A stretch of DNA of 64,000 nucleotides from a virus. Shown here one piece after another: positions 1 to 12,872 of this stretch; positions within the stretch are counted from its first letter, which is position 1, and each line of letters starts with the position of its first letter. The notes beneath the pieces are model-generated. The model was not told where the DNA came from. It ran no database searches and worked only from the letters and a program-made list of their open reading frames with translations. A program made the position numbers and the translations under genes. Location of the stretch: the IMG/VR virus record IMGVR_UViG_3300024313_000004, positions 32,001-96,000 of that record; one strand, given 5' to 3'.

Positions 1-8
1 AAATATAT

Positions 9-284
9 ATGAAAACTAAAGTAGAAATAAACGGATACGAGATTGAGATCGAAGAGAAAGATGGTCTTATTTCAGTAACAGCAACCTTTGATGACGAAGT
101 AGTTGAAGAATTCCAAATTGAAACGGAAGAAGGTGAAGAAGGTCAAGAGGAAGTTCAAGGATTTGATGAATTCGGTCAAGACGAGGAAGAAGATTTTGGT
201 CAAGACGAGGATGAAGAGTTAGAAGATGAAGAGTTAGATAGTAAATTAGAGTCTTTCCAATCTTTCATCAACAAGAAAAAATAA
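9..284 (+). CDS. Highly acidic hypothetical protein with C-terminal KLESFQSF motif
   Basis: ORF track; E/D-rich low complexity; C-terminal copy of the recurring K-x-F-E-x-F-like motif. Confidence 0.75.
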   Translation: MKTKVEINGYEIEIEEKDGLISVTATFDDEVVEEFQIETEEGEEGQEEVQGFDEFGQDEEEDFGQDEDEELEDEELDSKLESFQSFINKKK

Positions 285-294
285 TATAATTATT

Positions 295-1341
295 ATGATG
301 ATTAAAAAGTTTAATCAATATATTAAAGAAGATAATACAGGGGATAGACATCTCCTGTATTATGCTTTTGACTGGGATGATAATATTTTAAATATGACTA
401 CGGTTATTCACATGGAACACTTAATTGATGGTGAATGGTTACCTGAGGATGTATCAACTTCTAAATTTGCAGAAGTTAGATCTGATAAAGATAACTGGAG
501 AATTTTAGGTAATGATCCTGAACAAGCATTCTCTGAGTTTAGAGATAATGGACCAAGAGGTCAAGTTGCATTTTTAGAAGATGTTAAAGATTCTATTTCA
601 AATAAGAAATTTGGACCGGCTTGGAATGATTTTATTGAGTGTTTAGTAAATGGTTCTCTTTTTTCAATAATAACTGCTAGAGGACATGAATCTGAGGCAA
701 TGAGAACTGGTATTGAGTGGATATTAGATAATGTTTTATCTGAAGAAAGGATTTATGAGATGTATAATAACTTAATGAAGTTTGCTTATCTATTTAAACA
801 TAATAAAGAATTTGATAGAATACTTAAAGAACAACCATCTAAAAATGAATTATTTAAAGTTTATTTAGATAATTGTGATTTTGTTGGTGTTTCTGCACCA
901 TCAAGAGGTGGATCACCATCAAATCCTGAAAAGGCAAAAGAAGATGCACTTTTAATTTTTATTGACCGTGTAGATAAATTTGCATCATCAATAGGATATA
1001 AGGCTAAAGTTGGATTCTCTGATGATGATTTAGGTAATGTTAAACATATTGAAGATTTAACTGATAATATTCATCATGAACAATTTCCAAATCTATTATC
1101 ATTTGTAGTTAAGGGTACAAAAGATCCAGAAAACATAACAAAGAAAGTGAGAACTTTTGATGAATTTAAAGAGAGTCAGGATCCAATGGCGTCTAGTACG
1201 ATATCTATGCAAACTCCAAATGCAGCAATGTCTGGAGAATTAGATAGTAAAGATCCATATATTAAAGGAATGATTACACAATCTAAAAATTTAGCAAAAA
1301 CATCTAGAAAAATATTTGGTAAGAATAAAAAAAAAGATTAG
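295..1341 (+). CDS. HAD-superfamily phosphatase-like protein
   Basis: AFDWDDN (DxDD motif I), ITARG (motif II), FSDDD (motif IV); N-terminal MIKKFNQYIKE signal. Confidence 0.7.
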   Translation: MMIKKFNQYIKEDNTGDRHLLYYAFDWDDNILNMTTVIHMEHLIDGEWLPEDVSTSKFAEVRSDKDNWRILGNDPEQAFSEFRDNGPRGQVAFLEDVKDSISNKKFGPAWNDFIECLVNGSLFSIITARGHESEAMRTGIEWILDNVLSEERIYEMYNNLMKFAYLFKHNKEFDRILKEQPSKNELFKVYLDNCDFVGVSAPSRGGSPSNPEKAKEDALLIFIDRVDKFASSIGYKAKVGFSDDDLGNVKHIEDLTDNIHHEQFPNLLSFVVKGTKDPENITKKVRTFDEFKESQDPMASSTISMQTPNAAMSGELDSKDPYIKGMITQSKNLAKTSRKIFGKNKKKD

Positions 1342-1361
1342 GTAATAGAAATATTACAAAG

Positions 1362-1392
1362 AAAAATCCACCTAAAAAATAGGTGGATTTTT
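1362..1392. terminator. Bidirectional intrinsic terminator
   Basis: AAAAATCCACCTA-AAAAA-TAGGTGGATTTTT perfect inverted repeat with A/T tails. Confidence 0.85.
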
Positions 1393-1406
1393 TTATATAT
1401 AGAAAT

Positions 1407-3245
1407 ATGAGACTAAACAAATACTCCGAATTTATATTAGAAAATAGTAATACTATGATGATATTCTACTCTACTGAGTTTAGGAATATACTAACTAAAA
1501 TTGCATTAAATGATAGTAAAATTTCACCTACACAAACAATTGCTAGAATACTTCTAAGTATTGAAAATAAAGATGATATACAAGATACTTATACTTTGAT
1601 AGATAAAACCGATAAGAATGATATGATTTCATATGTTCAGACAAGTAGATTCTATAGAGAATTTCCAGAAGAAAATCTAAAGAAGTCTGGAGAAACATTT
1701 GTAAAGGGTAGTAAGTTCTGGAAAAGTGGAAGAACTCCACAGTATAGTATAGGAAGATGGGTAAGACACGTCTTTAATGATGTTCGTAAAACTCCTATAA
1801 GAGATAAGGATCTTGAAGAATTTGTAAATGATTACAAATCTACATACGATAAAATGTTAAATGTATCTAAGACTTTTGAAATAGTTAAAGGTGAAGACAT
1901 AAGATATTGGTATTTAGTAGATAATTATGATGAAATTAGGGGACAACTTGGGAGTTCATGTATGAGGTATGAGAAATGTCAACCTTATTTTGATATTTAT
2001 GTTCAAAACCCAGATGTTTGTAGTTTACTTATATTAAAAAATGGTGATAAACTAATAGGAAGAGCTTTATTATGGGTTTTAACCGATGGTAAAAAATTTA
2101 TGGATAGAATCTATACTATAGATGATAGTGATAAAAAATTATTTGAATCATATGGTGATGAGAATGGTTTTTTAAGAGATGGTCGACATGAAGTTAAAGT
2201 AAAAGAAGGAAGATATGATTATTATCCTTATATGGATAATTTTACAAATTATGATTATGAAAAAGGAATATTATCTACTAATATGGATGGTTATAAAATT
2301 TTAATACTACAAAATACAGACGGAAGTGCATCGGATAATGAAGATAGAGTTTGGAGTGATTACCATGGCGAATATATAGATGAGGATGATTCTAGATATT
2401 GTGAGGATATCGATGATTATGTTCATTATGAATGTGCGGTATGGTTAGATTACCTTGGTATATATGTATCGGATAACGCAAGTACCGTATATAGTGAGTA
2501 TACTTCAGATTCCTATTATTCTGAGGATACCGTATATTCTGAATGTATGGAAGATAGTTTACCAATAGAGTTTGTTGATTTAATAGAATTTAAAGTGAGT
2601 GATTCTGGAGACACTGATTATTGTACTAAAGAAATGAAAAAATACTATATGGAAATCGATGGTGTTTATTATTCCAAAAAGAGTTATATAAAGGACCCTT
2701 ACACAGGCGAATATAATTTTAGAGATAAAGTTATTGATGGTAATAGGTATGATAAATCATTAGAATCAAAACTTGAGAGTGAATTTGAAGTGGATGATAA
2801 ATATACACTAAGTGATGGTAGTTTTGATTTTGATAAGTATACAAAGGATCTTAAAGATTTACTTATCAAATACAAACCAAGTAAAGATTTTATTGATAAA
2901 CTTACTACTCCTACTAAATCTGGTGAAATATTGGGTGTGTTAAATGTATCATGTCTTTTACCCGGATTATACGCTTGGATAATTAGAAGTCAAAAAAGTG
3001 GGTCTATAAATGTAAATTACCAAACAAGTGGCGCATTGGCTAATTATAAAAATCAACTTTCTGATATTATATCTGATATGCCGGATGATATTTTTGATGT
3101 TGATAAGAATACAATTACTAGTTTTTATGTCGAGTTATTTAATAATAGATGGCAAAGAAGGAATCTCTTCGAGATATATGATAATATTGATATTAGTACT
3201 TTCCCAACAGAAATATACAAAAGAATTTTACTTTTAAATATATGA
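1407..3245 (+). CDS. PcfJ-like domain protein with acidic Tyr/Cys-rich repeats
   Basis: Start moved to ATG 1407 (MRLNKYSEFILE) because GTG 1383 lies inside the terminator; SCMR...NP...GRALLW...MDRIY motif set resembles PcfJ-like phage proteins. Confidence 0.55.
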   Translation: MRLNKYSEFILENSNTMMIFYSTEFRNILTKIALNDSKISPTQTIARILLSIENKDDIQDTYTLIDKTDKNDMISYVQTSRFYREFPEENLKKSGETFVKGSKFWKSGRTPQYSIGRWVRHVFNDVRKTPIRDKDLEEFVNDYKSTYDKMLNVSKTFEIVKGEDIRYWYLVDNYDEIRGQLGSSCMRYEKCQPYFDIYVQNPDVCSLLILKNGDKLIGRALLWVLTDGKKFMDRIYTIDDSDKKLFESYGDENGFLRDGRHEVKVKEGRYDYYPYMDNFTNYDYEKGILSTNMDGYKILILQNTDGSASDNEDRVWSDYHGEYIDEDDSRYCEDIDDYVHYECAVWLDYLGIYVSDNASTVYSEYTSDSYYSEDTVYSECMEDSLPIEFVDLIEFKVSDSGDTDYCTKEMKKYYMEIDGVYYSKKSYIKDPYTGEYNFRDKVIDGNRYDKSLESKLESEFEVDDKYTLSDGSFDFDKYTKDLKDLLIKYKPSKDFIDKLTTPTKSGEILGVLNVSCLLPGLYAWIIRSQKSGSINVNYQTSGALANYKNQLSDIISDMPDDIFDVDKNTITSFYVELFNNRWQRRNLFEIYDNIDISTFPTEIYKRILLLNI

Positions 3246-3787
3246 ATAATATAAAGACATATGAAGGATTCTTAGATTTCTTCAAAAAGAAACCAAAGAG
3301 TACAGAGCCAGTTTATATGGATGATATAAAAGATTGTGGATATGATATTTTACATGATTCTAAAAATAGAATAGATGCATACATGGATAGAAGACCTGGC
3401 GGGATAAAACATGATTATGATGATATTTTTGGTATCAAGAGAGGAATGGATTCAACACACGATTATGAGGATCTTATGAATGATACTTTGGGACTACCAC
3501 CAAACGTAAGGGATAATAAGATGATTATAGAATTTCGATATTATTTATCAGGTGATAAAGGTATTTCAAAAAATGAAATGTCGGAAATACTTAAAGAATT
3601 TGTTGATAAACTACAGATATTAAATAGTACTGTAAGTTTTTACCTTTCATGGGGTTATGATGAAGGGTATATAGATAATAAAGAATATAAGAATATCGAC
3701 AAGATGATGGATGTTATATACAAAAAGGATAAAACTCCATTGATAGCTATGAAAATAACTGCACCTTCTGATATAATCGTTGATTAA
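3242..3787 (+). CDS. Hypothetical protein (MNNIKTYEGF signal family)
   Basis: ORF overlapping the upstream stop by 4 nt; shared N-terminal motif. Confidence 0.75.
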   Translation: MNNIKTYEGFLDFFKKKPKSTEPVYMDDIKDCGYDILHDSKNRIDAYMDRRPGGIKHDYDDIFGIKRGMDSTHDYEDLMNDTLGLPPNVRDNKMIIEFRYYLSGDKGISKNEMSEILKEFVDKLQILNSTVSFYLSWGYDEGYIDNKEYKNIDKMMDVIYKKDKTPLIAMKITAPSDIIVD

Positions 3788-3827
3788 ATTTTATAAACTT
3801 AGAATGTGATTTTTTATATCATGTTAT

Positions 3828-5018
3828 ATGGATAAGGAATACATAAAGGATTTAGTTCAAAAGATACTCAATAAAGAGTTTGCGAATAAAAACAAAAGAA
3901 AAATAGTTGATTACGTTGATAGATTCAACGTGGCATGTCCTTATTGTGGTGATTCTAAAAACGAATATAAGAAAAGAGGTAACCTTTATTTAAATCGATT
4001 GATGTATGTTTGTTTCAATTGTGATAAGAGGACAAACCTTGATAGGATGTGTAGGGATTTCAACGAAATGGTTGATCCAGATAAGAAACTTGAGATGATT
4101 GAGCATCTTAATAGTGTAATGACATATTCTGATTATGAGACCAATATGTCCGATGCTAAGTTTGAAAATCTTATCGAATTAAGCGAGTTAGAGAGAGTTT
4201 TCTCTGCAAACCTTACTCAGATATCAGATTTCAAACCTATTCAAACCAACGGCGGTATATACAAGTATTTAATAGGTCGTGGAATACCCGAAGAATATCA
4301 TAAAAATATCTATCAAGCAAAATTCTGGAAAAATGAAGATGAAAGTGAATGGATAATTGTTATGTTAAATCGAAGAGATAATAAAGTATTGGGTATGCAA
4401 GTTCGTAACCTAAAAGAAGGAAAACGAAGAATGTTTAAAATTTATAACTATGAAAATCTTTTAGAGTGGATAAATATTGGTAAAGAAGAACCAATCGATA
4501 TTGATATGAATGAGATGGTTATTTATAATAAACTATCATATTATTTTAATATTTTAAATGTTGACTTAGGCAGAACTATAACTATTTTTGAAGGTTATTT
4601 AGATTCTCTTTTTTACCCAAACTCAATAGGATTAGTAGGTGTAAATACTGACTATAGAGTTATTGAAAATAATGGTTTAGATATACAGTATTTTTTCGAT
4701 AATGATGATGCAGGGTTTAATAAAACTGAGGAGAAAATGAAAAGTGGGTACCCTGTTTTTTTATGGAGAAAACTTTTTGAAGATATAGTTGAAAAAAAGA
4801 AGTCACCTGACCCAATGTTACTTTTACATAGAATAAGTAAAGTAAAGGATATAAATAGACTTGCAACATTGGTACCAAATCCATTTAAAACATTAAGGTT
4901 AGATGATTTTTTTAGTAAAGATGTTTTAGACTTAAAATGGATACCAAAAAGGAAGAAATATTCTAAGAAAGAAGATACTGATTATAATCGAAAGTTCAAC
5001 AATATTAAGTATTTATAA
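3828..5018 (+). CDS. DNA primase (T4 gp61-like)
   Basis: Zn finger CPYCGD...CFNC; TOPRIM motifs FEGYLDS and FFDNDDAG. Confidence 0.88.
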   Translation: MDKEYIKDLVQKILNKEFANKNKRKIVDYVDRFNVACPYCGDSKNEYKKRGNLYLNRLMYVCFNCDKRTNLDRMCRDFNEMVDPDKKLEMIEHLNSVMTYSDYETNMSDAKFENLIELSELERVFSANLTQISDFKPIQTNGGIYKYLIGRGIPEEYHKNIYQAKFWKNEDESEWIIVMLNRRDNKVLGMQVRNLKEGKRRMFKIYNYENLLEWINIGKEEPIDIDMNEMVIYNKLSYYFNILNVDLGRTITIFEGYLDSLFYPNSIGLVGVNTDYRVIENNGLDIQYFFDNDDAGFNKTEEKMKSGYPVFLWRKLFEDIVEKKKSPDPMLLLHRISKVKDINRLATLVPNPFKTLRLDDFFSKDVLDLKWIPKRKKYSKKEDTDYNRKFNNIKYL

Positions 5019-5059
5019 ATTTCTTTTCTGTTTTTAATATATAAAAGAAAATATTAAAA

Positions 5060-5365
5060 ATGGAAAAGAAAGTTGAGGTACCTAAAACTGATAAAAAGAA
5101 GTTCTTTTTTGGTTGGAATAATTGTAAATGGTTATTTACAGAGTTATTAAATGTTTATTCTAATAAAAAATCATATTTCTCGAAGAAGAGAGTAGAATCA
5201 GGTATAGCATTTATTATCGCACAATGGGGAATGGTTTTTTTCTTATTAGAAAAACATGTAGATTTATCGATGGGTGAATTCTTATTATGGGCAGCAGCTG
5301 AATTTGCAGTATCTGGTTATATTATAAATAAGATACAAAAAGAGAAAAATAATTTAGAGGAATGA
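5060..5365 (+). CDS. Small two-TM membrane protein, holin-like candidate
   Basis: Two hydrophobic segments (GIAFIIAQWGMVFFLL; FLLWAAAEFAVSGYII), charged termini, 101 aa. Confidence 0.45.
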   Translation: MEKKVEVPKTDKKKFFFGWNNCKWLFTELLNVYSNKKSYFSKKRVESGIAFIIAQWGMVFFLLEKHVDLSMGEFLLWAAAEFAVSGYIINKIQKEKNNLEE

Positions 5366-6276
5366 AATACGGAGTAATCTATATAAAAATATGTCCTAAA
5401 GAAGGAACTCCCGGAGATTGGATAAAGTATTGCCAGATATTATCTGCGACTCCTAAATCGTTTCAGTTAAACGCGAAAGTGATTGCTGATGATATAAACT
5501 CTAGATATTCGGATGATATAGTAATACCTATGGACATAGATGTACATCCTGGATGTACGACAACACCTGAAAGTGTTAAAGAGATTGCGGAAGATATGTA
5601 TAATCAATTTTGTGAGTTAGTAGAAAGACAGGGCATTCCAAATTCTGTAAGATGTGTTTATTCGGTTGGTGAACTTAGAAATGTTAATGTTGATTCTACA
5701 CATCATCTAGGTAATGATAAAATTATGGTGAAATTAGGAAGATTTTTAGATGAATCTGACGAACCGGGTATATTTGAGGTAGATGGAACAGATAGGATAT
5801 TGGAATCTATCGAAGAGATGGAAGAAGATTCTGAAGATATAATGCAGGAGCTTAAAGACGAAGGATTCAAGATCAGCTTTGAAAGAGACACGTCTATTTT
5901 AGGAGTCAAAGATACATTCTTTTCAGTGTTGATTGAGCGACCATATTTTTCTCCTGCGAGAGAGATACCTGGATTACCTTCACCTCCAGGAGGATTATAT
6001 TCTGGCGACATCTTTGCCTGGAAAGAAGTTAAGGGTGCTGTAATAAGGCTGAACGATTGGTATTATTCACATTCCGGTAGAGACTATACTCCTGGAATAA
6101 ACGGTGAGATAAGCAACAAACTTACTAATATGGGAATAAAGGTAGAGACAAAGTCTCCTTTTAGGATGTTTAGCGGAGGAACAGAATTTGGAATAGGATG
6201 GAGCTCTCCAGAGGATTTCGACAGCTTAGGTGATACCATAACTTTCACTAGACTCACTATAGCGATGATGTTATAA
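5362..6276 (+). CDS. Hypothetical two-domain protein (possible degenerate nucleotide-cyclase-like N-terminus)
   Basis: ORF track; 4-nt overlap with upstream gene; 3' half visibly more GC-rich. Confidence 0.6.
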   Translation: MKYGVIYIKICPKEGTPGDWIKYCQILSATPKSFQLNAKVIADDINSRYSDDIVIPMDIDVHPGCTTTPESVKEIAEDMYNQFCELVERQGIPNSVRCVYSVGELRNVNVDSTHHLGNDKIMVKLGRFLDESDEPGIFEVDGTDRILESIEEMEEDSEDIMQELKDEGFKISFERDTSILGVKDTFFSVLIERPYFSPAREIPGLPSPPGGLYSGDIFAWKEVKGAVIRLNDWYYSHSGRDYTPGINGEISNKLTNMGIKVETKSPFRMFSGGTEFGIGWSSPEDFDSLGDTITFTRLTIAMML

Positions 6277-6310
6277 AATATAATATATAAAAAAAAATAA
6301 TATATAAAAA

Positions 6311-6697
6311 ATGAAAAATATTAAGAAATTTGAAAACTTCCAAGAGTCGGATCAAAAAAATATATTTGTATTTAATACAAACAAAGAGTTAAGAGGATTT
6401 GCAGAATGGAATACGCCGGAAGAAACCTTAGAAAGTTTCAAATCTGATCTTTATTTTTTGGGACATGAAGAATATGAGGGTATCTTCGTAGAAGCTAAAG
6501 TTTCGGACAATGATATTATCATATCATTGGATTCTGATTATGGTTGGAGTAATAAAGAGTTAGAAGACTACATTAGTAAGAGAGAGAAAGATTTAGAGAA
6601 GTTCTTTAGAAATGTTCTAACTGAAATTTTAAACGATGATTATATTAAATTATATTCTATTGATGGTGAAAAAATAGATATTAAAAATGTAAAATAA
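6311..6697 (+). CDS. Hypothetical protein (MKNIKKFENF signal family)
   Basis: ORF; TAATATATA at 6281 upstream. Confidence 0.75.
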   Translation: MKNIKKFENFQESDQKNIFVFNTNKELRGFAEWNTPEETLESFKSDLYFLGHEEYEGIFVEAKVSDNDIIISLDSDYGWSNKELEDYISKREKDLEKFFRNVLTEILNDDYIKLYSIDGEKIDIKNVK

Positions 6698-6717
6698 TTC
6701 TACATTTAATAAAACTA

Positions 6718-6747
6718 AAAAAACCACTCATTTTTGAGTGGTTTTTT
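6718..6747. terminator. Bidirectional terminator, CCACTCA/TGAGTGG family
   Basis: AAAAAACCACTCA-TTTT-TGAGTGGTTTTTT between convergent genes. Confidence 0.88.
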
Positions 6748-6761
6748 ATATTTAATTTTTA

Positions 6762-7352
6762 TTAAAACTTTCTTTTGAATGTTCTGTTTTTGTAACTTTT
6801 AGATTCGCCAATTTTTTCAATATCTACTGCTTGTGCTTTAAGTGCTTGTGCTTCAGGATCTAAGCCAGTTTCAGTTTTATCTGGACCTTGTTCGAATTCA
6901 CCTTGAGCTTGAGCTCTTCTTTGTGCTTGAGCTTGAGCTCTTCTTTCTTTTTTACCTTGAGCTTCTTTTTGTGCCTCTGGGTTATTAAGGTAAGCAACAA
7001 CTTTTTCGATATCATCTGTTTTCAAATCAATATCATCAACTCTAAATTTACCAGTTTCTGATGGTTGATCAATTTTATGACCTTCGTAGTTGATTACATT
7101 TCCTGATACCGAAGTACCTAGTAATTCTGCCAATCCTGCTAATCCACCTTCTACTGCATCTAATTCATCACCATATGCTAATGGATTATCCTTTACACCT
7201 GGTTCTTCTGTAGGAATAACAGATGGCCTAGATGGTCTCGGTGTTGACGGAGTTTCTGTTGGTGCTGGAATTGTTTCAGGAGTAACACTTGGTCTTGAAG
7301 GAGTAGGTGCGTTCTCATTTGTTTTTACAAATTGATTATATTTTTTAATCAT
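6762..7352 (-). CDS. Pro/Gln-rich hypothetical protein (MIKKYNQF signal family)
   Basis: ORF; PSRPS repeats; TAATATATA (rc) at 7375-7383. Confidence 0.75.
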   Translation of the reverse strand: MIKKYNQFVKTNENAPTPSRPSVTPETIPAPTETPSTPRPSRPSVIPTEEPGVKDNPLAYGDELDAVEGGLAGLAELLGTSVSGNVINYEGHKIDQPSETGKFRVDDIDLKTDDIEKVVAYLNNPEAQKEAQGKKERRAQAQAQRRAQAQGEFEQGPDKTETGLDPEAQALKAQAVDIEKIGESKSYKNRTFKRKF

Positions 7353-7522
7353 CTTTTTAGACTTATTTTTTTAGTATATATTAAAATATTTTTTCCTTTT
7401 TTACTCTTCTTCACTTGCTTTTGAATGTCGCCAATTATCTTTGACTCTATTTTAGTGTTTCTACTTCTTGTACTATTTTCCCAATTGACTACCCATGAAG
7501 GACTCGAATTTTATTGTCTTCA

Positions 7523-8014
7523 TTATTCTTCGTTTTTATTTTCTAACTCACTGACTACATAGTCAATAAAGCTATCTAGTTCATATTCGTATCCTTCACA
7601 AAAGTCAAAAATGTCAAATTCATCTAAATTAAAAACACTTATAAAATCAGGTATTGTCATTTTAGTATTTGTATTATATATTATCTTACCTTCTAATCTA
7701 CCACTAATACTTTTACCACCCTTTAATATTAAATCGGGACAGTTTAAAATTCCAAAGTAATGTTTTTCATTATTATGGTATTCTATATGGTCAAATTCGA
7801 ATTTGAATAATCCTGAATCATCTTCAAAGAATCGTTCGCTTTCTATTTTATTTAATTCTTGGTGTACGTTTTCTTCACCGCCATATTTGTGTGCATCTAA
7901 GAAATCTTTTTCTAAATTGGAAAGTGACTTAATACCATGTTTTGATATTTTATCTAAAATATCATCGACTCTTTGTGCGGTTGTATATCCTTCGTATCTC
8001 ATCAAGTGTTTCAT
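7523..8014 (-). CDS. Hypothetical protein with DUF6576-like module
   Basis: Start likely MKHLMRYEGY (8014) after rc TAATATATA 8029-8037; VDDILDKISKHGIKSLSNLEKDFLD. Confidence 0.65.
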   Translation of the reverse strand: MKHLMRYEGYTTAQRVDDILDKISKHGIKSLSNLEKDFLDAHKYGGEENVHQELNKIESERFFEDDSGLFKFEFDHIEYHNNEKHYFGILNCPDLILKGGKSISGRLEGKIIYNTNTKMTIPDFISVFNLDEFDIFDFCEGYEYELDSFIDYVVSELENKNEE

Positions 8015-8055
8015 AATTTTCATTGGTTTATATATTATTTTTGAGAAACTTTTTT

Positions 8056-8409
8056 TTATAAAATCGTCGTTTTCCAATTGTTTTGATAATCCGTCTCTAT
8101 AATCTTTTTCTTTACTGCCTCATAAACTGGTATAAGATTACCTGAGGTTTGATATATAGCAATATTATTTTTTTGATATTTTTCTGAATTGAAATCTTCT
8201 GGATCTTTATTATAAAGTATAGAGTCTATTTTATTTTCTCGATCACGAGTCTTTATAACATCAACATAACTATCTATAAAGAATATTATAAAACCATCTT
8301 CTACTTTGTGATTTTTAATCATATCAAAATCTATTCCTTCATAGAAATAAGTGGTTACATCATTTATTTCTATCTTTTCAATCAAAGTCAAATCCATCAA
8401 ATAAATCAT
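8056..8409 (-). CDS. Hypothetical protein
   Basis: ORF; RENKIDSIL motif. Confidence 0.65.
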   Translation of the reverse strand: MIYLMDLTLIEKIEINDVTTYFYEGIDFDMIKNHKVEDGFIIFFIDSYVDVIKTRDRENKIDSILYNKDPEDFNSEKYQKNNIAIYQTSGNLIPVYEAVKKKIIETDYQNNWKTTIL

Positions 8410-8617
8410 CTATTTTTTTATCTCTAAAAGAACCTTTTTGTTTACCTTCAAATTCTTCATCTTTTTCGAATTTATTTTTAAATTCTTCAAATGCTGTTCT
8501 TGATATTTTAGAAAGTGCCATAGCACCGGTTGATATTTTACCTTCATTTAATTTGTCTGTTAGATAACTTACAAACATTGGATATAGTTTTTCATTTTTC
8601 ATAGAATATATATCCAA
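8378..8617 (-). CDS. Hypothetical protein
   Basis: ORF; RDKKIDDLF motif. Confidence 0.65.
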   Translation of the reverse strand: MDIYSMKNEKLYPMFVSYLTDKLNEGKISTGAMALSKISRTAFEEFKNKFEKDEEFEGKQKGSFRDKKIDDLFDGFDFD

Positions 8618-8655
8618 TAAGTACTTTCCGAAAATAATTTATTTATATATACACT

Positions 8656-9387
8656 ATGATAAAAGATTTAAGTTTAGGACCAGTTTTCACAAGTAAGTAT
8701 GGTGATGTGAATTCAATAAATTGGTTGAATGGAATCATCAAAAAGTATATTGCAGAGGTTTATAGACCTTTTGGATATTATTATGGATGTCCTAATAAAG
8801 ACATTGATGTGGATGGTAGAAAAATAAATACAGAATATATTGCGAAGATGGTGAATAATTATACCGTTTTCAAAGGTATAATAGAGAAAGTTGGTATAAC
8901 GACTGAGGAAGAATTTTATGATTATATGACTAATAATTTATTTGATGTGTATAACTACAAAGGTCTTTACTTTGATGAAAAGACTTTACCAATTCTTATA
9001 GCAACCACCAGAAGAGGTAATAAAGGTGAACAAGATTCTTTAATTTTCTTTAAAAATGAATTACTTAAAAAGGGTATTCAATGTGTAATGATATCACCTA
9101 CACCAGAAGAAGATTTATCAGGTATAGATGGTAAATTCATTTGGAATGGTAAAGAATTGACTATACAAGTAAAGCCTTATGATAATATTATGGAGAATGA
9201 TGGTTTAGTGAGTGCGTACTCTCAAGGGTCGTTATCACTTAAAATAGTAGGATCTAGTAAAAATGTAGATTATTTAGTATTATATAAACTAGAAAAAAAT
9301 AGCTTTATTATTGTTCGTTCAAGTAATACTACTGTACAAGGTAATCTATTTAAATTCCCAAAAGATAAGATAATTTCAATGAAATAA
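8656..9387 (+). CDS. PD-(D/E)xK-fold endonuclease-like protein
   Basis: GNKGEQ...EEDLSGIDG...TIQVKP fits the E / D / QxK arrangement of PD-(D/E)xK nucleases. Confidence 0.55.
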   Translation: MIKDLSLGPVFTSKYGDVNSINWLNGIIKKYIAEVYRPFGYYYGCPNKDIDVDGRKINTEYIAKMVNNYTVFKGIIEKVGITTEEEFYDYMTNNLFDVYNYKGLYFDEKTLPILIATTRRGNKGEQDSLIFFKNELLKKGIQCVMISPTPEEDLSGIDGKFIWNGKELTIQVKPYDNIMENDGLVSAYSQGSLSLKIVGSSKNVDYLVLYKLEKNSFIIVRSSNTTVQGNLFKFPKDKIISMK

Positions 9388-9430: not shown

Positions 9431-10898
9431 TTATATACCTCCAAAGCCATTGAATATATCCATTACGACTGACAATCTCTCAGTTATTTCTGGCATTCCC
9501 AACGGTTCGATAATCTTATTTATCGGTGCCAAAATACACTTAGCGAATTGAATATCATAATTTATTTCAGGTGCAATCTCAATAGGATAAGAACCTCTGA
9601 TATATGCAAATATATCACCGTTATGTGTATCTTTACAATAATAATATTTTATCTTTGTTCCTGATTTTATAAACTCATATTTTGTTTGTAATAGTTTATT
9701 TTGATTTAATAAGTAATTATGATAAGCACTTGCCTTAACTGCAAAGTGTGCTCCATTTACAAACTTTAATGGTAATGATTTATCGTCAATTACTTTAGCA
9801 TCATAGTTCGAACAAGAAGATTGCATCGCGATATCGTCGATATCTGCTAACTCAAATTCTTTACGTAATGCTTTTATGAGTTTAAGTAAATCTTTGATGT
9901 TGAATGTATTTGAATTCTCAAATAAATATTTAACAATATTGATAATTTTCTCCCTAGCGAAAAGTGGTGTTGATGATCTAACAAGTTCCACTCCTTTTGG
10001 GTATAAGTATGATAATCTTTCATAAGGTATACCATCTTCAAAAGAAACATGTTGTATGTATTTCTTCTTAGCCAGAGATATAATAGATTCTGATATTCTT
10101 TCTAACTCAAAATCTTCTTTATTATCTACTCCAAATCCTGCAGCATAATCTTCTAAACACTGTTTGAAATATCCACCATATCTGTAATGGTCCATTCCGT
10201 GTATATAGTCTACTTCTCTTGACCAGTTCCATTTTACATCACAGGTAAGAGAACCACTTGAAACTAAGTTCATAAAATCTCTATCTTTTATGAATAAACC
10301 ATCTACAATTACCATTTCATAGTCCATTGTTAAAAGCTTTTCAAAGTCATTATAGTTTTCTGCACCACCAAGATAATTTGGATTATCAGTATTGATTTTT
10401 TTTGGTGATAAAACGATAAATTTCTTATCAATCTCACTTAATGATTTTGGATTTAGAAATAAATTCTCCCATTCTGAATGTTCTATTGCAGGTAGGAATG
10501 ATACAAATAAAGAATCGGTATCTGCATATATTGATACTGCTTCATTATTATTTATCTGTGTAACATTTCTAATACAAAGATTTTTATGGAATTCTTCATC
10601 TAAATGCCATTGATTATACCAATAATCTTCATTTACCATATCCATAGTTTTTGTTAAATCCCTTCCTTGTGCTGTAATTGTGCCTGCAACATGATTATTA
10701 TATAATATGAAGTAGGCTGTCGCGAATGCTCCGTAAGAGCCGTTCAGTACTAATTTTAGTCTTTTTGCCCCCAGTAAAAAATACCGGGGGCTAAACAAGA
10801 GCGAGCTGAAGTGCGTTGTAGTATTCCGCTTCCTTCTTTAGCTCGCTCGCTTGTTTTTTTAAAGACTCGATTTTTGATATTTTATCTTCTCGTGTCAT
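9431..10898 (-). CDS. polB: Family-B DNA polymerase, C-terminal subunit (fingers/palm/thumb; gp43B-like), interrupted by a 40-nt coding gap at 10757-10796
   Basis: ORF1 10898-10791 (MTREDK...YYNALQLALV*) joined to the ORF2 frame gives motif B QLALKLVLNGSYG; motif C YADTDS; AKKKY; KGVELVRSS; predicted 475 aa after joining. Confidence 0.88.
10767..10791 (-). other. GC-rich RNA hairpin inside the polymerase coding gap (candidate bypass signal)
   Basis: GCCCCCGGUA-UUUUU-UACUGGGGGC; the G-U pair makes it perfect only on the mRNA strand; no U-tract follows. Confidence 0.8.
10793..10856 (-). other. Long 5' stem-loop covering the proposed take-off codon
   Basis: AAACAAG(CG)AGCGAGCU pairs with AGCUCGCUCUUGUUU (15 bp, 2-nt bulge); inner GAAG/CUUC and GCG/CGC pairs. 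Confidence 0.7.
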
Positions 10899-10921
10899 AT
10901 AATTTATATACTTTTTATTAA

Positions 10922-10960
10922 ATAAGTTCTAAATGGAACTTATACTATTTGATATATATT
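10922..10960. promoter_or_regulatory. Back-to-back divergent promoter-like elements in an inverted repeat
   Basis: ATAAGTTC-TAAATG-GAACTTAT; each arm gives GAACTT followed about 20 nt later by ATAT(A) toward polB (-) or HNH (+). Confidence 0.45.
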
Positions 10961-10978
10961 TAAAATAGTATTATTTAT

Positions 10979-12082
10979 ATGGTAAAGGAGAAAGAAGTTT
11001 TAATTAAAATAAACATTAGAAATAGAGTTCATTTTGAAAGATTGGGGTATTCTATTGATGATGAGATATATGTTTCGGTTGTTGATTTGTTACCTGGTTC
11101 TAAATTTAAAGTCACTGCAATTTGTAAAATTTGTGAATCAGAAAATATACTACCATATAGTAAATATCTGGTAAATAAAAACAGAAATGGTAAAAATTAC
11201 TATTCTTGCTTTCGTTGTAAAACACATGTTAAGGAAAAAACTTGTATGGAAAGATATGGTGTAAAATCATATTCAATGACTAATGAATTTAGGGTATCAG
11301 AAAGTATAAAATGGAGAGGTATTAAAAAGGGTGGAGATAAAGGTGAAAAAACAATGTTGGAAAGGTATGGTGTAACATCATATTTTAAAACCGATAAGAG
11401 TAAAGAATATAATAGTAAATGGATGTCATCTGATGAGTTTAAAGAGAAGTCTAAGAGGACGATGTTGGAAAGATATGGAGTAGATCACTATTCAAAATCA
11501 AGTAAATTCAAAGAGTATATATCCTTAAATAAGGATCATATAGTTAATAAAATTAAAGAAACGTTTATTAATAAATATGGTGTGGATAACGCATTTAAAT
11601 TAGGAAGTTATAAAAAGAAAATGTTAGATTGTAGAGATAGTATTGAATGTAGTAAAAGGGAAACTTGTATGGAAAGGTATGGTGTGGATAATGTATCAAA
11701 AGTGGATATTATTAAAGAAAAGAGGAAAAAAACATTATTAGGTAATGGTCAAATTGTACCGGATGATAAAATAACCTCCTGGGAACTTTATAAAAAAAAT
11801 GTTAGAAATATGACTAAACGGAATAAAAAAATACTATATGAAGTATGGAACGGATTTGACTATTATGATAATGAATTTATTAAAGGTTATCTATCTCATA
11901 CACATACACACCGGTTTTATCCGACGATTGATCATAAAACTTCGGTATATTTTGGGTTTATAAATAAAATAGATCCAAATATAATTGGATCTATTGAAAA
12001 TTTATGCATAACCAAAAGGTTCATAAATTCAACTAAATCTAAAATGTGTGAAGAAGAGTTTTTAAAAATATTAAAGTCTTAA
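10979..12082 (+). mobile_element. Free-standing HNH-type homing endonuclease with ERYGV repeats
   Basis: Five (K/R/E)TxxE(R/K)YGV repeats; CxxC Zn motifs; C-terminal PTIDHK...IENLCITKRFIN H-N-N motif; opposite strand to both neighbours. Confidence 0.75.
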
Positions 12083-12083
12083 A

Positions 12084-12872
12084 TCACTCATCTTCTTCTT
12101 CAAAGTCTTGTTCAAAGCTCAACATTAAATTTGAGTCTTCATGTTTTACTAACATAAAGTTATCAAATATATGAAATTTAACATCACCGGAATCATTTAC
12201 ACATGATAGAAATTTCTTATTAAGTATTAGATTAGAATTTCTTTCATCATCTATTTTATCTATCTCAAGTTCCCATGCCGATGTTTCTGATACAACAACT
12301 TTACCGGAACTTACACCAATTTGTAATATCTTATCACCATTTATATTAGATAGTTTTTTTATATCTGTGAAATCATCTTTACTTATATTGAATGACCATC
12401 TACTATTTTTAATATTAAGACCTTGGTTTAGTTTACTTAAACTCATGTCTTTTATTTCATAATGTTCACCACCAATCCAATTGACTTTTAGTTTACCACC
12501 AACGATTTGTAATGCTCTTGCATCCATTATATCTTCATCATCTTGTGATTCTTTATGTGTTATTTCAATAGTGACTTTCTCATTATCTTTTAAAAAATTT
12601 AAATTTTTAACAAATTTCTTTGCATTTAGGATAATAATATCTATACCATATTCTAAGTCTTCTTTTATTTCAAATAGATCGTTAGTTTTTATAATGTAAT
12701 TTTTAAATGCTAGAATTGTTGCTTTCCCTAGAATAGAATACATCATAATATTCTCACTATCTATCTTAATTTTAATATTATCAGATATCTTAGTAAGGTC
12801 TTCTAACTTAGATATAAACTCTGAAAATTTTTCTGATTTTATTCTAAATTTATCTTTTCCTGATTTTGCCAT
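12084..12872 (-). CDS. Sliding-clamp-like protein (gp45/PCNA fold)
   Basis: 262 aa with duplicated alpha/beta pattern, acidic C-terminus, near the polymerase; no diagnostic motif. Confidence 0.55.
   Translation of the reverse strand: MAKSGKDKFRIKSEKFSEFISKLEDLTKISDNIKIKIDSENIMMYSILGKATILAFKNYIIKTNDLFEIKEDLEYGIDIIILNAKKFVKNLNFLKDNEKVTIEITHKESQDDEDIMDARALQIVGGKLKVNWIGGEHYEIKDMSLSKLNQGLNIKNSRWSFNISKDDFTDIKKLSNINGDKILQIGVSSGKVVVSETSAWELEIDKIDDERNSNLILNKKFLSCVNDSGDVKFHIFDNFMLVKHEDSNLMLSFEQDFEEEDE

Follow-up and report, generated by a model that had tools for sequence, protein, structure and literature searches.

The DNA analysed here, which we call the window, is a stretch of 64,000 nucleotides (nt) of viral sequence, bases 32001-96000 of the 134.6-kb IMG/VR contig IMGVR_UViG_3300024313_000004, which has a CheckV completeness of 23% and whose nearest GenBank relatives are the uncultured "huge phage" genomes LR745206.1 and LR756502.1 (634-642 kb). 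It carries a gene, here named pol-C, for the C-terminal half of a split family B DNA polymerase (the match is to positions 157-452 only of Pfam DNA_pol_B, and it is the one family B polymerase match on the contig), as well as a free-standing gene on the opposite strand for a predicted HNH endonuclease. The polymerase gene is interrupted near its 5' end by a 40-nt gap in the coding sequence, and it is the relation between this gap and the neighboring endonuclease gene that concerns us. The features of the locus are collected in Table 1, together with the gap positions found in related phages.

Table 1. Features of the pol-C/HNH locus (window positions) and gap sites among relatives (pol-C residue that the gap follows); 5' SL, upstream stem-loop; MFE, minimum free energy; AF2, AlphaFold 2.
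Feature	Position	Strand	Basis or codon pair
pol-C coding segment 2, from the Lys of motif B through motif C to the thumb	9431..10756	-	Pfam DNA_pol_B; PHROG 262 "DNA polymerase"
Coding gap, 40 nt: GTT, TAG, hairpin, 7-nt spacer, putative landing codon CTA	10757..10796	-	Absent from uninterrupted homologues
GC-clamped 10-bp hairpin within the gap	10767..10791	-	Single match in window and 134.6-kb contig
pol-C coding segment 1, codons 1-34, ending in putative take-off codon CTT	10797..10898	-	Translation
3' arm of 5' SL, ending 1 nt before take-off codon	10801..10811	-	RNAalifold pairs; in MFE fold
5' arm of 5' SL	10836..10846	-	RNAalifold pairs with compensatory changes; in MFE fold
Divergent intergenic region between HNH and pol-C starts, 80 nt	10899..10978	.	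Sequence; cassette-to-cassette homology continues through the region
Predicted free-standing homing endonuclease gene, HNH clade A	10979..12082	+	ATG start, intact, 367 codons/amino acids
Zinc-ribbon-like motif (C49, C52, C77, C80) in N-terminal part	11123..11218	+	Cysteines of alignment A1; AF2 beta strands
Predicted C-terminal HNH (beta-beta-alpha-metal) nuclease domain, residues ~264-367	11768..12079	+	Invariant residues and VIA-align
Conserved 262-amino-acid neighbor gene bounding the cassette; stop 1 nt from HNH stop	12084..12872	-	83% identical in L007, HNH absent there
Site 1b	follows A33		GCT...GCN
Site 1a (window's type)	follows L34		CTT...CTA
Site 2	follows V37		GTT...GTA
Site 5 (L081 reading)	follows G40		GGT...GGT
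Site 4	follows S41		TCT...TCA
Site 3	follows Y42		Landing AAC, TAA, GAC, CAA or AGC after Tyr take-off
Site 5 (L078 reading)	follows Y42		TAC...TAC

Read on the minus strand from its ATG at 10898, 80 nt from the start of the HNH gene, pol-C runs for 34 codons to CTT (10799-10797), which is followed by GTT, the stop codon TAG (10793-10791), the hairpin (10791-10767) and CTA (10759-10757); coding then resumes in the +1 frame with AAA. The position of the gap is that of polymerase motif B (QLAL|KLVLNGSYG), and deleting 10796-10757 restores QLAL-KLVLNGSYG, which is exactly what the uninterrupted pol-C of LR745206.1 (locus L003 in our numbering of pol-C loci) encodes. A pattern search for the hairpin gave one match in the window with 0 expected by chance, and a 114-nt region around it folds at -48 kcal/mol (z = -7.9), with none of 200 shuffled sequences as stable. 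The G+C content of the contig is 29.6%, and it holds only three runs of C5 and five of G5; no other GC-clamped hairpin like that of the gap was found in its 134.6 kb (23% of the genome), so that a dispersed hairpin element was rejected as an account of the gap.

The HNH gene is an open reading frame of its own, intergenic and outside any intron or intein, that starts ~180 nt from the gap. Its product combines a zinc ribbon, DUF7487 repeats and a C-terminal HNH fold, although Pfam reports DUF7487 (4.7e-19) and nothing else; PHROG 3339 and 12131 match it, of which the N-terminal two thirds are labeled "homing endonuclease" and the C-terminal part belongs to a family of unknown function, and its 1623 homologues are all unnamed. 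In an alignment of 37 sequences (A1, with identities down to 34%), the four N-terminal cysteines, whose motif presumably binds DNA, are nearly invariant, and D318, H319, N341 and N350 are invariant, which gives the catalytic His in a DH pair and the structural or metal-binding Asn/His expected of the HNH superfamily. In the AF2 model (mean predicted local distance difference test score, pLDDT, 89.6), an exhaustive VIA-align comparison of residues 264-367 returned solved HNH nucleases in all of its 21 best rows, with 4h9d (Gme HNH) at the top (Z 7.4, root-mean-square deviation 4.0, 85 residues aligned) and GeoCas9 HNH (Z 6.3), GVE2 phage HNH (Z 5.8), other Cas9 HNH domains, McrA and PacI among the rest. 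A Foldseek search with the model gave no match at E <= 0.001, the weaker matches being mostly HNH domains, and a sequence search of the PDB gave none. On the modeled fold and the conserved residues, we accept the product as an HNH endonuclease. An earlier note on this DNA, made from its sequence, had described just such a gene on the strand opposite the polymerase, about 80 nt from the polymerase start and 180 nt from a gap in its most conserved codons; the gene, the distances, the coordinates and the place of the gap in motif B all proved correct.

A protein-guided scan of IMG/VR gave 78 pol-C loci, or 62 rows after removal of duplicates, and a second sample was drawn from the HNH side in IMG/VR and in JGI/ENA metagenomes, so that ~100 related phage contigs were compared in total. 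The gap is present in 36 of the 62 rows and absent from 26, and it falls at six or more codon positions within 11 codons of motif B, in any frame. With 35 distinct versions in IMG/VR and >15 in metagenomes, more than 50 alleles are known from independent assemblies, all with the flanking coding segments intact. They share a layout with the take-off codon followed by 6 nt (usually with TAG, TAA or TGA), the hairpin, a spacer of 5-17 nt and the landing triplet. The hairpin, with 9-12 bp, a C4-5/G4-5 clamp and a predicted stability of -13 to -21 kcal/mol, is the sole universally conserved element of the gap; the sequences of its inner stem diverge widely while the pairing is kept. For 18 alleles at site 1, RNAalifold recovered both the hairpin and an upstream stem-loop (5' SL), with compensatory changes in 11 of 17 pairs. 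The 5' SL, formed between pol nt 53-63 and 88-98, stops 1 nt short of the take-off codon and belongs to the gapped alleles: 9.8-10.4 of its 11 positions pair in site 1 gap alleles vs 4.7 of 11 in 24 gap-less alleles.

How such a gap might be read through is constrained by the same alleles. Gap length is 36-48 nt (76 nt in one case) and divides by remainder mod 3 as 15:10:10, and in most alleles a stop directly before the landing codon closes the downstream frame; a programmed +1/-1 frameshift was rejected on these lengths and on the downstream-frame stops between take-off and landing. An in-frame start before the motif B Lys is present in only 4 of 21 site 1 alleles, and internal initiation was likewise rejected; reassignment of a stop codon was rejected because the stop is TAG, TAA or TGA depending on the allele and the frames differ. 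A self-splicing group I or II intron needs a core of at least ~200 nt, and an Rfam search of the gap gave only a sub-threshold chance hit (21 bits vs a gathering threshold of 37). The upstream segment of the gap alleles varies mainly at third codon positions (20 of 21, vs 8 of 20 second positions). Take-off and landing sites carry matched codon pairs (CUU/CUA, GCU/GCN, GUU/GUA, UCU/UCA, UAC/UAC), and in the metagenome allele L190 both have changed from Leu to Phe (UUU/UUC). Given more than 50 alleles with mixed frames, stops, few starts, third-position variation and the double change in L190, we therefore set aside an artefact, a pseudogene, a fixed frameshift, read-through and separate initiation. 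The 76-nt gap is that of L191 (1215-1425), at site 2, about twice the usual length and with a much longer hairpin and an A+T-rich loop. The near-identical L057 and L059 differ by one G in the G run of the hairpin, giving gaps of 41 and 42 nt and a different frame relation, which may reflect either true indifference to frame or a homopolymer sequencing error.

The HNH gene and the gap occur together. An HNH gene of the window's type is present in 22 of the 62 rows, always divergent and immediately upstream of pol-C, and all 22 of these rows are gapped; none of the 26 gap-less rows has an HNH gene of either clade described below, and 12 rows have the gap only. Among 12 phylogenetically independent pairs that differ in the gap, the HNH gene differs the same way in ~7, the opposite way in none and not at all in 5 (sign test, median p 0.016). 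When the search began from the HNH gene, all 16 IMG/VR loci at >=44% identity adjoined a gapped pol-C, and ~25 more distinct loci in JGI/ENA metagenomes (>=43% identity) were all beside pol-C, all but one of them gapped. The association holds for the pol-adjacent clades only: near ~60 paralogous HNH genes elsewhere in the related contigs (29-43% identity), no GC hairpin was found except one 2.7 kb away in L149/150, so that a rule by which every HNH gene of this family has a gap was rejected. The stricter rule, that the HNH gene never occurs without the gap, fails on one locus, L177, discussed below. Related but chimeric endonucleases are found at two further gap-less loci, L221 and L160; since these proteins differ in the DNA-binding or the nuclease part, we leave them out of the counterexamples.

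The pairing extends to the two HNH clades. The HNH tree divides with 99% support into clade A (13 rows), found with one exception at sites 1a, 1b and 2 (after L34, A33 and V37), and clade B (7 rows), found with one exception at sites 3, 4 and 5 (after Y42, S41, and G40 or Y42); clade A loci newly found in metagenomes were all at sites 1a, 1b or 2. This is what immunity would predict if the clades recognize neighboring stretches of motif B.

The chimeric genes just mentioned are cases of domain shuffling among these endonucleases and differ in construction. At L160 (3001-4725) a DUF7487 N-terminal part is joined to a different C-terminal part with a Pfam Mom-family match, and at L221 (1222-2298) a different N-terminus of zinc ribbon and repeats is joined to a clade A HNH domain. 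The divergent slot of the HNH gene can also hold a gene with GIY-YIG and NUMOD3 domains, beside a site 1a gap in L064 (5017-5781) and beside a gap-less pol-C in L049 (5058-5819), L050 and L051. In the window's own contig, a stretch resembling the N-terminal 147 residues of the HNH protein (31% identity) lies on the minus strand at G000:C1:108699-109100 (~window 76700, outside the window) and is a paralogue or remnant of it.

Both elements appear to have moved repeatedly. A maximum-likelihood tree built from the C-terminal 258 columns of pol-C requires a minimum of 16 changes in the presence of the gap, 26 in its site and 16 in the presence of the HNH gene. The window's sister on this tree, L007, is 86% identical in pol-C (86% also over segment 2) and 83% identical in the 262-amino-acid neighbor, and has neither gap nor HNH gene. 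In sliding windows the two are only ~63% identical over pol nt 1-120 and ~80% identical beyond, while against L077 the window is 94-98% identical over pol nt 1-150 and ~68% beyond; the gapped 5' end would thus be a transplanted patch. In a near-isogenic series, L015 is empty, L024 has a gap alone, and L020 has a gap together with a clade B HNH gene. Identity among the three is 93-100% both past the gap, downstream, and in the upstream gene; what sets them apart is the stretch of ~170 nt at the start of pol-C, and an HNH insert of 882 nt that lies in L020 between a terminator-like hairpin and the pol-C promoter region. Likewise, L017, with site 1b and an HNH gene, and L031, with site 3 and without one, share ~100% identity starting at pol nt 180 and 30-73% ahead of it. 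In every case the 3' edge of the variable patch is 25-50 nt past the gap; the other edge is just past the HNH stop, where similarity falls to ~40%. Four near-isogenic pairs, as well as the window/L007/L077 comparison, show a mosaic tract that runs out of the intergenic region and stops 25-50 nt past the gap on its 3' side; it has the extent that co-conversion of the DNA between the HNH gene and a cut site would give. Its boundaries look like the footprint that a break near motif B would leave if a donor served for its repair and conversion proceeded towards the nuclease gene. The pol-C/HNH locus is also where several contigs end (L012, L017, L018, L030, L036, L045); these ends may be assembly breaks due to polymorphism in the population.

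Taken together, these results lead us to think it probable that the HNH gene, the first 34 codons of pol-C and the 40-nt insert in motif B form a mobile homing cassette, with a cycle of cutting, immunity and hopping. In a mixed infection, the nuclease would nick or cut the gap-less motif B DNA of a related phage, and recombinational repair would copy donor sequence, beginning just 3' of the break and running back over the 5' end of pol-C and often over the HNH gene; the insert would split the recognition site, so that carriers would be immune. To express the interrupted gene, ribosomes would take off at CUU (codon 34) and slide over GUU, UAG, the hairpin and the spacer, and the peptidyl-tRNA would re-pair at CUA 40 nt downstream, perhaps assisted by the 5' SL refolding behind the ribosome and the GC hairpin ahead of it. 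By analogy, the features of the gap fit ribosomal bypassing as in gene 60 of phage T4.

A number of observations weigh against this proposal. The cleavage site, the immunity and the ribosome hopping are steps that we infer. The fold match that identifies the nuclease is middling (Z < 8), and no curated HNH profile in Pfam matches the protein. L177 has an intact 366-residue clade A HNH protein with all catalytic residues beside a gap-less pol-C; its motif B flank reads FNATQQALK in place of YNALQLALK, with T and Q replacing two Leu just 5' of the gap sites, substitutions that may or may not be another route to resistance. The long-branched L032 (clade A) and L076 (clade B) break the pairing of clade and site. 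At site 3 the landing triplets agree with the Tyr take-off codon in just 1-2 of their 3 positions, and the match is also imperfect in L193 and L197. The hairpin here is GC-clamped and starts 6 nt past the take-off codon, unlike gene 60, where the take-off codon is within the stem. Finally, the HNH and the gap are not strictly co-inherited: the HNH proteins of the window and L077 are only 62% identical despite 94-98% identity in the gap segment. This last discrepancy suggests that the moving unit is often only a short patch around the break, which would also explain the 12 gap-only rows. The earlier note had supposed that HNH gene and gap spread together and had asked for their co-occurrence among related genomes; the co-occurrence is as strong as that idea demands, apart from the later exception of L177, and the patchy distribution and the near-isogenic contigs that differ only in the cassette favor joint spread, while the movement of the gap segment without the HNH gene (L077) and the HNH gene without a gap (L177) show that it is incomplete.

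Three other explanations deserve consideration. The cassette and its mobility could be real and the gap nonetheless be removed from the mRNA, by an unknown endonuclease and ligase or as a micro-intron, instead of being hopped over. The site 3 alleles without a matched landing codon would fit this, the matched codons at other sites could be short direct repeats left by insertion, and the hairpin is the one element common to all gaps. Excision, however, has no need of the stop that nearly all alleles carry 6 nt or less from the take-off codon, nor would it explain why take-off and landing codons changed jointly from Leu/Leu to Phe/Phe in L190 or why a 5' SL that ends 1 nt before the take-off codon, as in gene 60, is confined to gap alleles; a spacer that varies from 5 to 17 nt is a poor fit to cutting at a distance measured from a structure, and 36-48 nt is far below the size of known self-splicing introns and has no Rfam match. 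We consider removal of the gap from the RNA quite unlikely.

It is also unlikely, in our judgment, that the gap and the HNH gene are independent elements that meet at a recombination hot spot, with the gap serving some other role (e.g., throttling synthesis of the polymerase) and conferring no immunity. One third of the gap loci lack the HNH gene, the histories of gap segment and HNH gene differ between the window and L077, L177 has the HNH gene alone, and GIY-YIG and Vsr-like endonucleases also occupy the slot, some of them beside a gap-less pol-C (L049-51, L084, L160). Yet the HNH gene is found at 0/26 gap-less vs 22/36 gapped loci, a bias that holds in independent pairs; two HNH clades pair with two clusters of gap sites; and the insertions, at six positions or more, are packed into 11 codons of a single motif, while the rest of the 134.6-kb contig and the surroundings of the paralogous HNH genes have none. 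Gap-only alleles are moreover expected from a homing cycle once the nuclease is lost, as with MobA. That the interrupted pol-C is simply a pseudogene or an assembly artefact, with an incidental HNH gene beside it, might be thought from the window alone, which shows a stop and a frame shift in an essential motif; it becomes highly improbable in view of the number of distinct alleles with intact segments on both sides, the upstream variation mostly at third codon positions, the structure kept by covariation and the lack of a second family B match on the contig.

A broader picture can be drawn, which we offer tentatively as a possibility somewhat short of even. Two rival HNH lineages may compete for the same stretch of ~40 bp in motif B, each with hop-over inserts at its own site, and the alleles may replace each other in an arms race. 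On that view, the hairpin and 5' SL would make up a portable module for ribosome hopping, able to work in any frame and at six or more codon positions, and would amount to a general "translational intron" that serves as immunity against nucleases.

The split of the polymerase itself is another matter. Relatives without the gap and without the HNH gene also begin pol-C at the fingers helix; because the split is found in these relatives, the nuclease did not create it, and the split is ancestral and older than the cassette. No N-terminal polymerase half (PF03104) was found on the window's own 134.6-kb contig; such a half was found only in complete relatives, and in LR745206.1 it is a 513-amino-acid gene with the exonuclease motifs and motif A (PF03104, and PF00136 positions 21-151) that lies ~100 kb away. 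In that genome (L163:1018-2559, at ~233 kb) the end of the N-terminal half and the start of the C-terminal half are, by inspection, charged helical stretches rich in K, E and L, which may hold the two halves together.

The 262-amino-acid neighbor has no Pfam or PHROG match and is kept beside pol-C in most relatives (identity up to 83%). In L007 and L009, a small gene resembling one for a membrane protein lies between it and pol-C; this gene is missing from the window, where the HNH gene occupies the space. In many relatives pol-C holds a second insertion, of larger size, in the region of motif C (DTDS): ~1.6 kb in L053 (4373-6001), L056, L062 and L069, ~360 nt in L057-L059, and others in L071 (6246-6721), L078-L080 and L160 (4770-6620). 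The L160 insertion reads as an in-frame intein and the remaining ones shift the frame; none of the motif C inserts matched Rfam at the gathering threshold. With these insertions besides the motif B gap, the C-terminal half of the polymerase is thus a hot spot for several kinds of mobile element.

The closest known parallel is in phage T4, where the HNH element MobA is accompanied by the 50-nt bypass of gene 60 (Bonocora et al., 2011, as cited by Manning and Atkins, bioRxiv 10.1101/2022.08.31.505936). In both systems an HNH homing endonuclease adjoins the downstream half of a split essential replication gene, with a gap of ~40-50 nt within the first 34-46 codons of that half. Both have a stop that coincides with the take-off codon or lies close to it, a landing codon that matches the take-off codon (here except at site 3, L193 and L197), a stem-loop at the gap and a 5' SL; in both the gap is found wherever the endonuclease is (here with the exception of L177) and also in genomes that have lost it, HNH remnants and an occasional GIY-YIG replacement occur (here L064, beside a site 1a gap), and the distribution among relatives is patchy and recent-looking.

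The two systems also differ. Here a family B polymerase takes the place of Topo2L as the host gene, and the nuclease domain lies at the C-terminus, preceded by a zinc ribbon and DUF7487 repeats, an order of domains that is the reverse of that in Mob proteins. The HNH gene here is divergent, while in T4 it is co-oriented and lies between the two halves; the polymerase halves, which are ~100 kb apart, go back to an ancestral split that the element did not cause. There are also six or more codon positions for the gap and two nuclease clades. A tblastn search with three HNH representatives against positions 1-9000 of T4 gave only chance hits (E > 1), the T4 mobA there being a pseudogene and not an intact MobA, and no match to a T4-like Mob protein was found in the phage collection.

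Two other systems invite comparison. The byps of Magnusiomyces capitatus mitochondria are G+C-rich hairpin inserts of 27-55 nt, with 81 copies in 12 genes (Lang et al., 2014, as described in a paper citing it). As far as that account goes, they too are short hairpin inserts in coding regions of an A+T-rich genome, with matched flanking codons and a presumed ribosome bypass; they are, however, dispersed and have no tie to a nuclease, whereas the hairpin here is unique in 134.6 kb, confined to one motif and linked to the HNH gene. In T4-related Aeromonas phages, reportedly described by Petrov, Ratnayaka and Karam in 2010, the family B polymerase gene (gene 43) is split and has a free-standing endonuclease gene at the start of its C-terminal cistron; the nuclease is said to target polymerase alleles without the insertion. 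There the protective insertion is reportedly a self-splicing group I intron, while here it would be a short untranslatable gap.

In the literature consulted, long-range programmed bypassing in phages is otherwise reported only from T4 gene 60 and from topoisomerase homologues borne with MobA; Manning and Atkins (bioRxiv 10.1101/2022.08.31.505936) list dozens of cassettes of the gene 60 type, each of them located in Topo2L and accompanied by MobA, and describe similar bypassing in other phages as unreported. Our literature search likewise found no report of polymerase bypass in huge phages, and a pairing of nuclease and gap only for T4 MobA/gene 60. For the practical purposes of annotation, gapped polymerase genes in the genomes of huge phages should not be called pseudogenes, and the more than 50 natural variants in position, frame, hairpin, spacer and codon pair can be used to test what ribosome hopping needs. 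The case that the earlier note anticipated, a second one in a different essential gene, is supported in that the nuclease, the polB gene and the hairpin are all unrelated to those of T4 while the pattern of distribution is like that of MobA, and the sequence comparisons support a second "nuclease plus ribosome-bypass" cassette that is unrelated to the one of T4. If this is true, it would strongly support protection of the carrier against the nuclease as the reason for which bypass elements exist, and the "homing endonuclease plus hop-over gap" would be a recurrent evolutionary strategy and not an oddity of T4.

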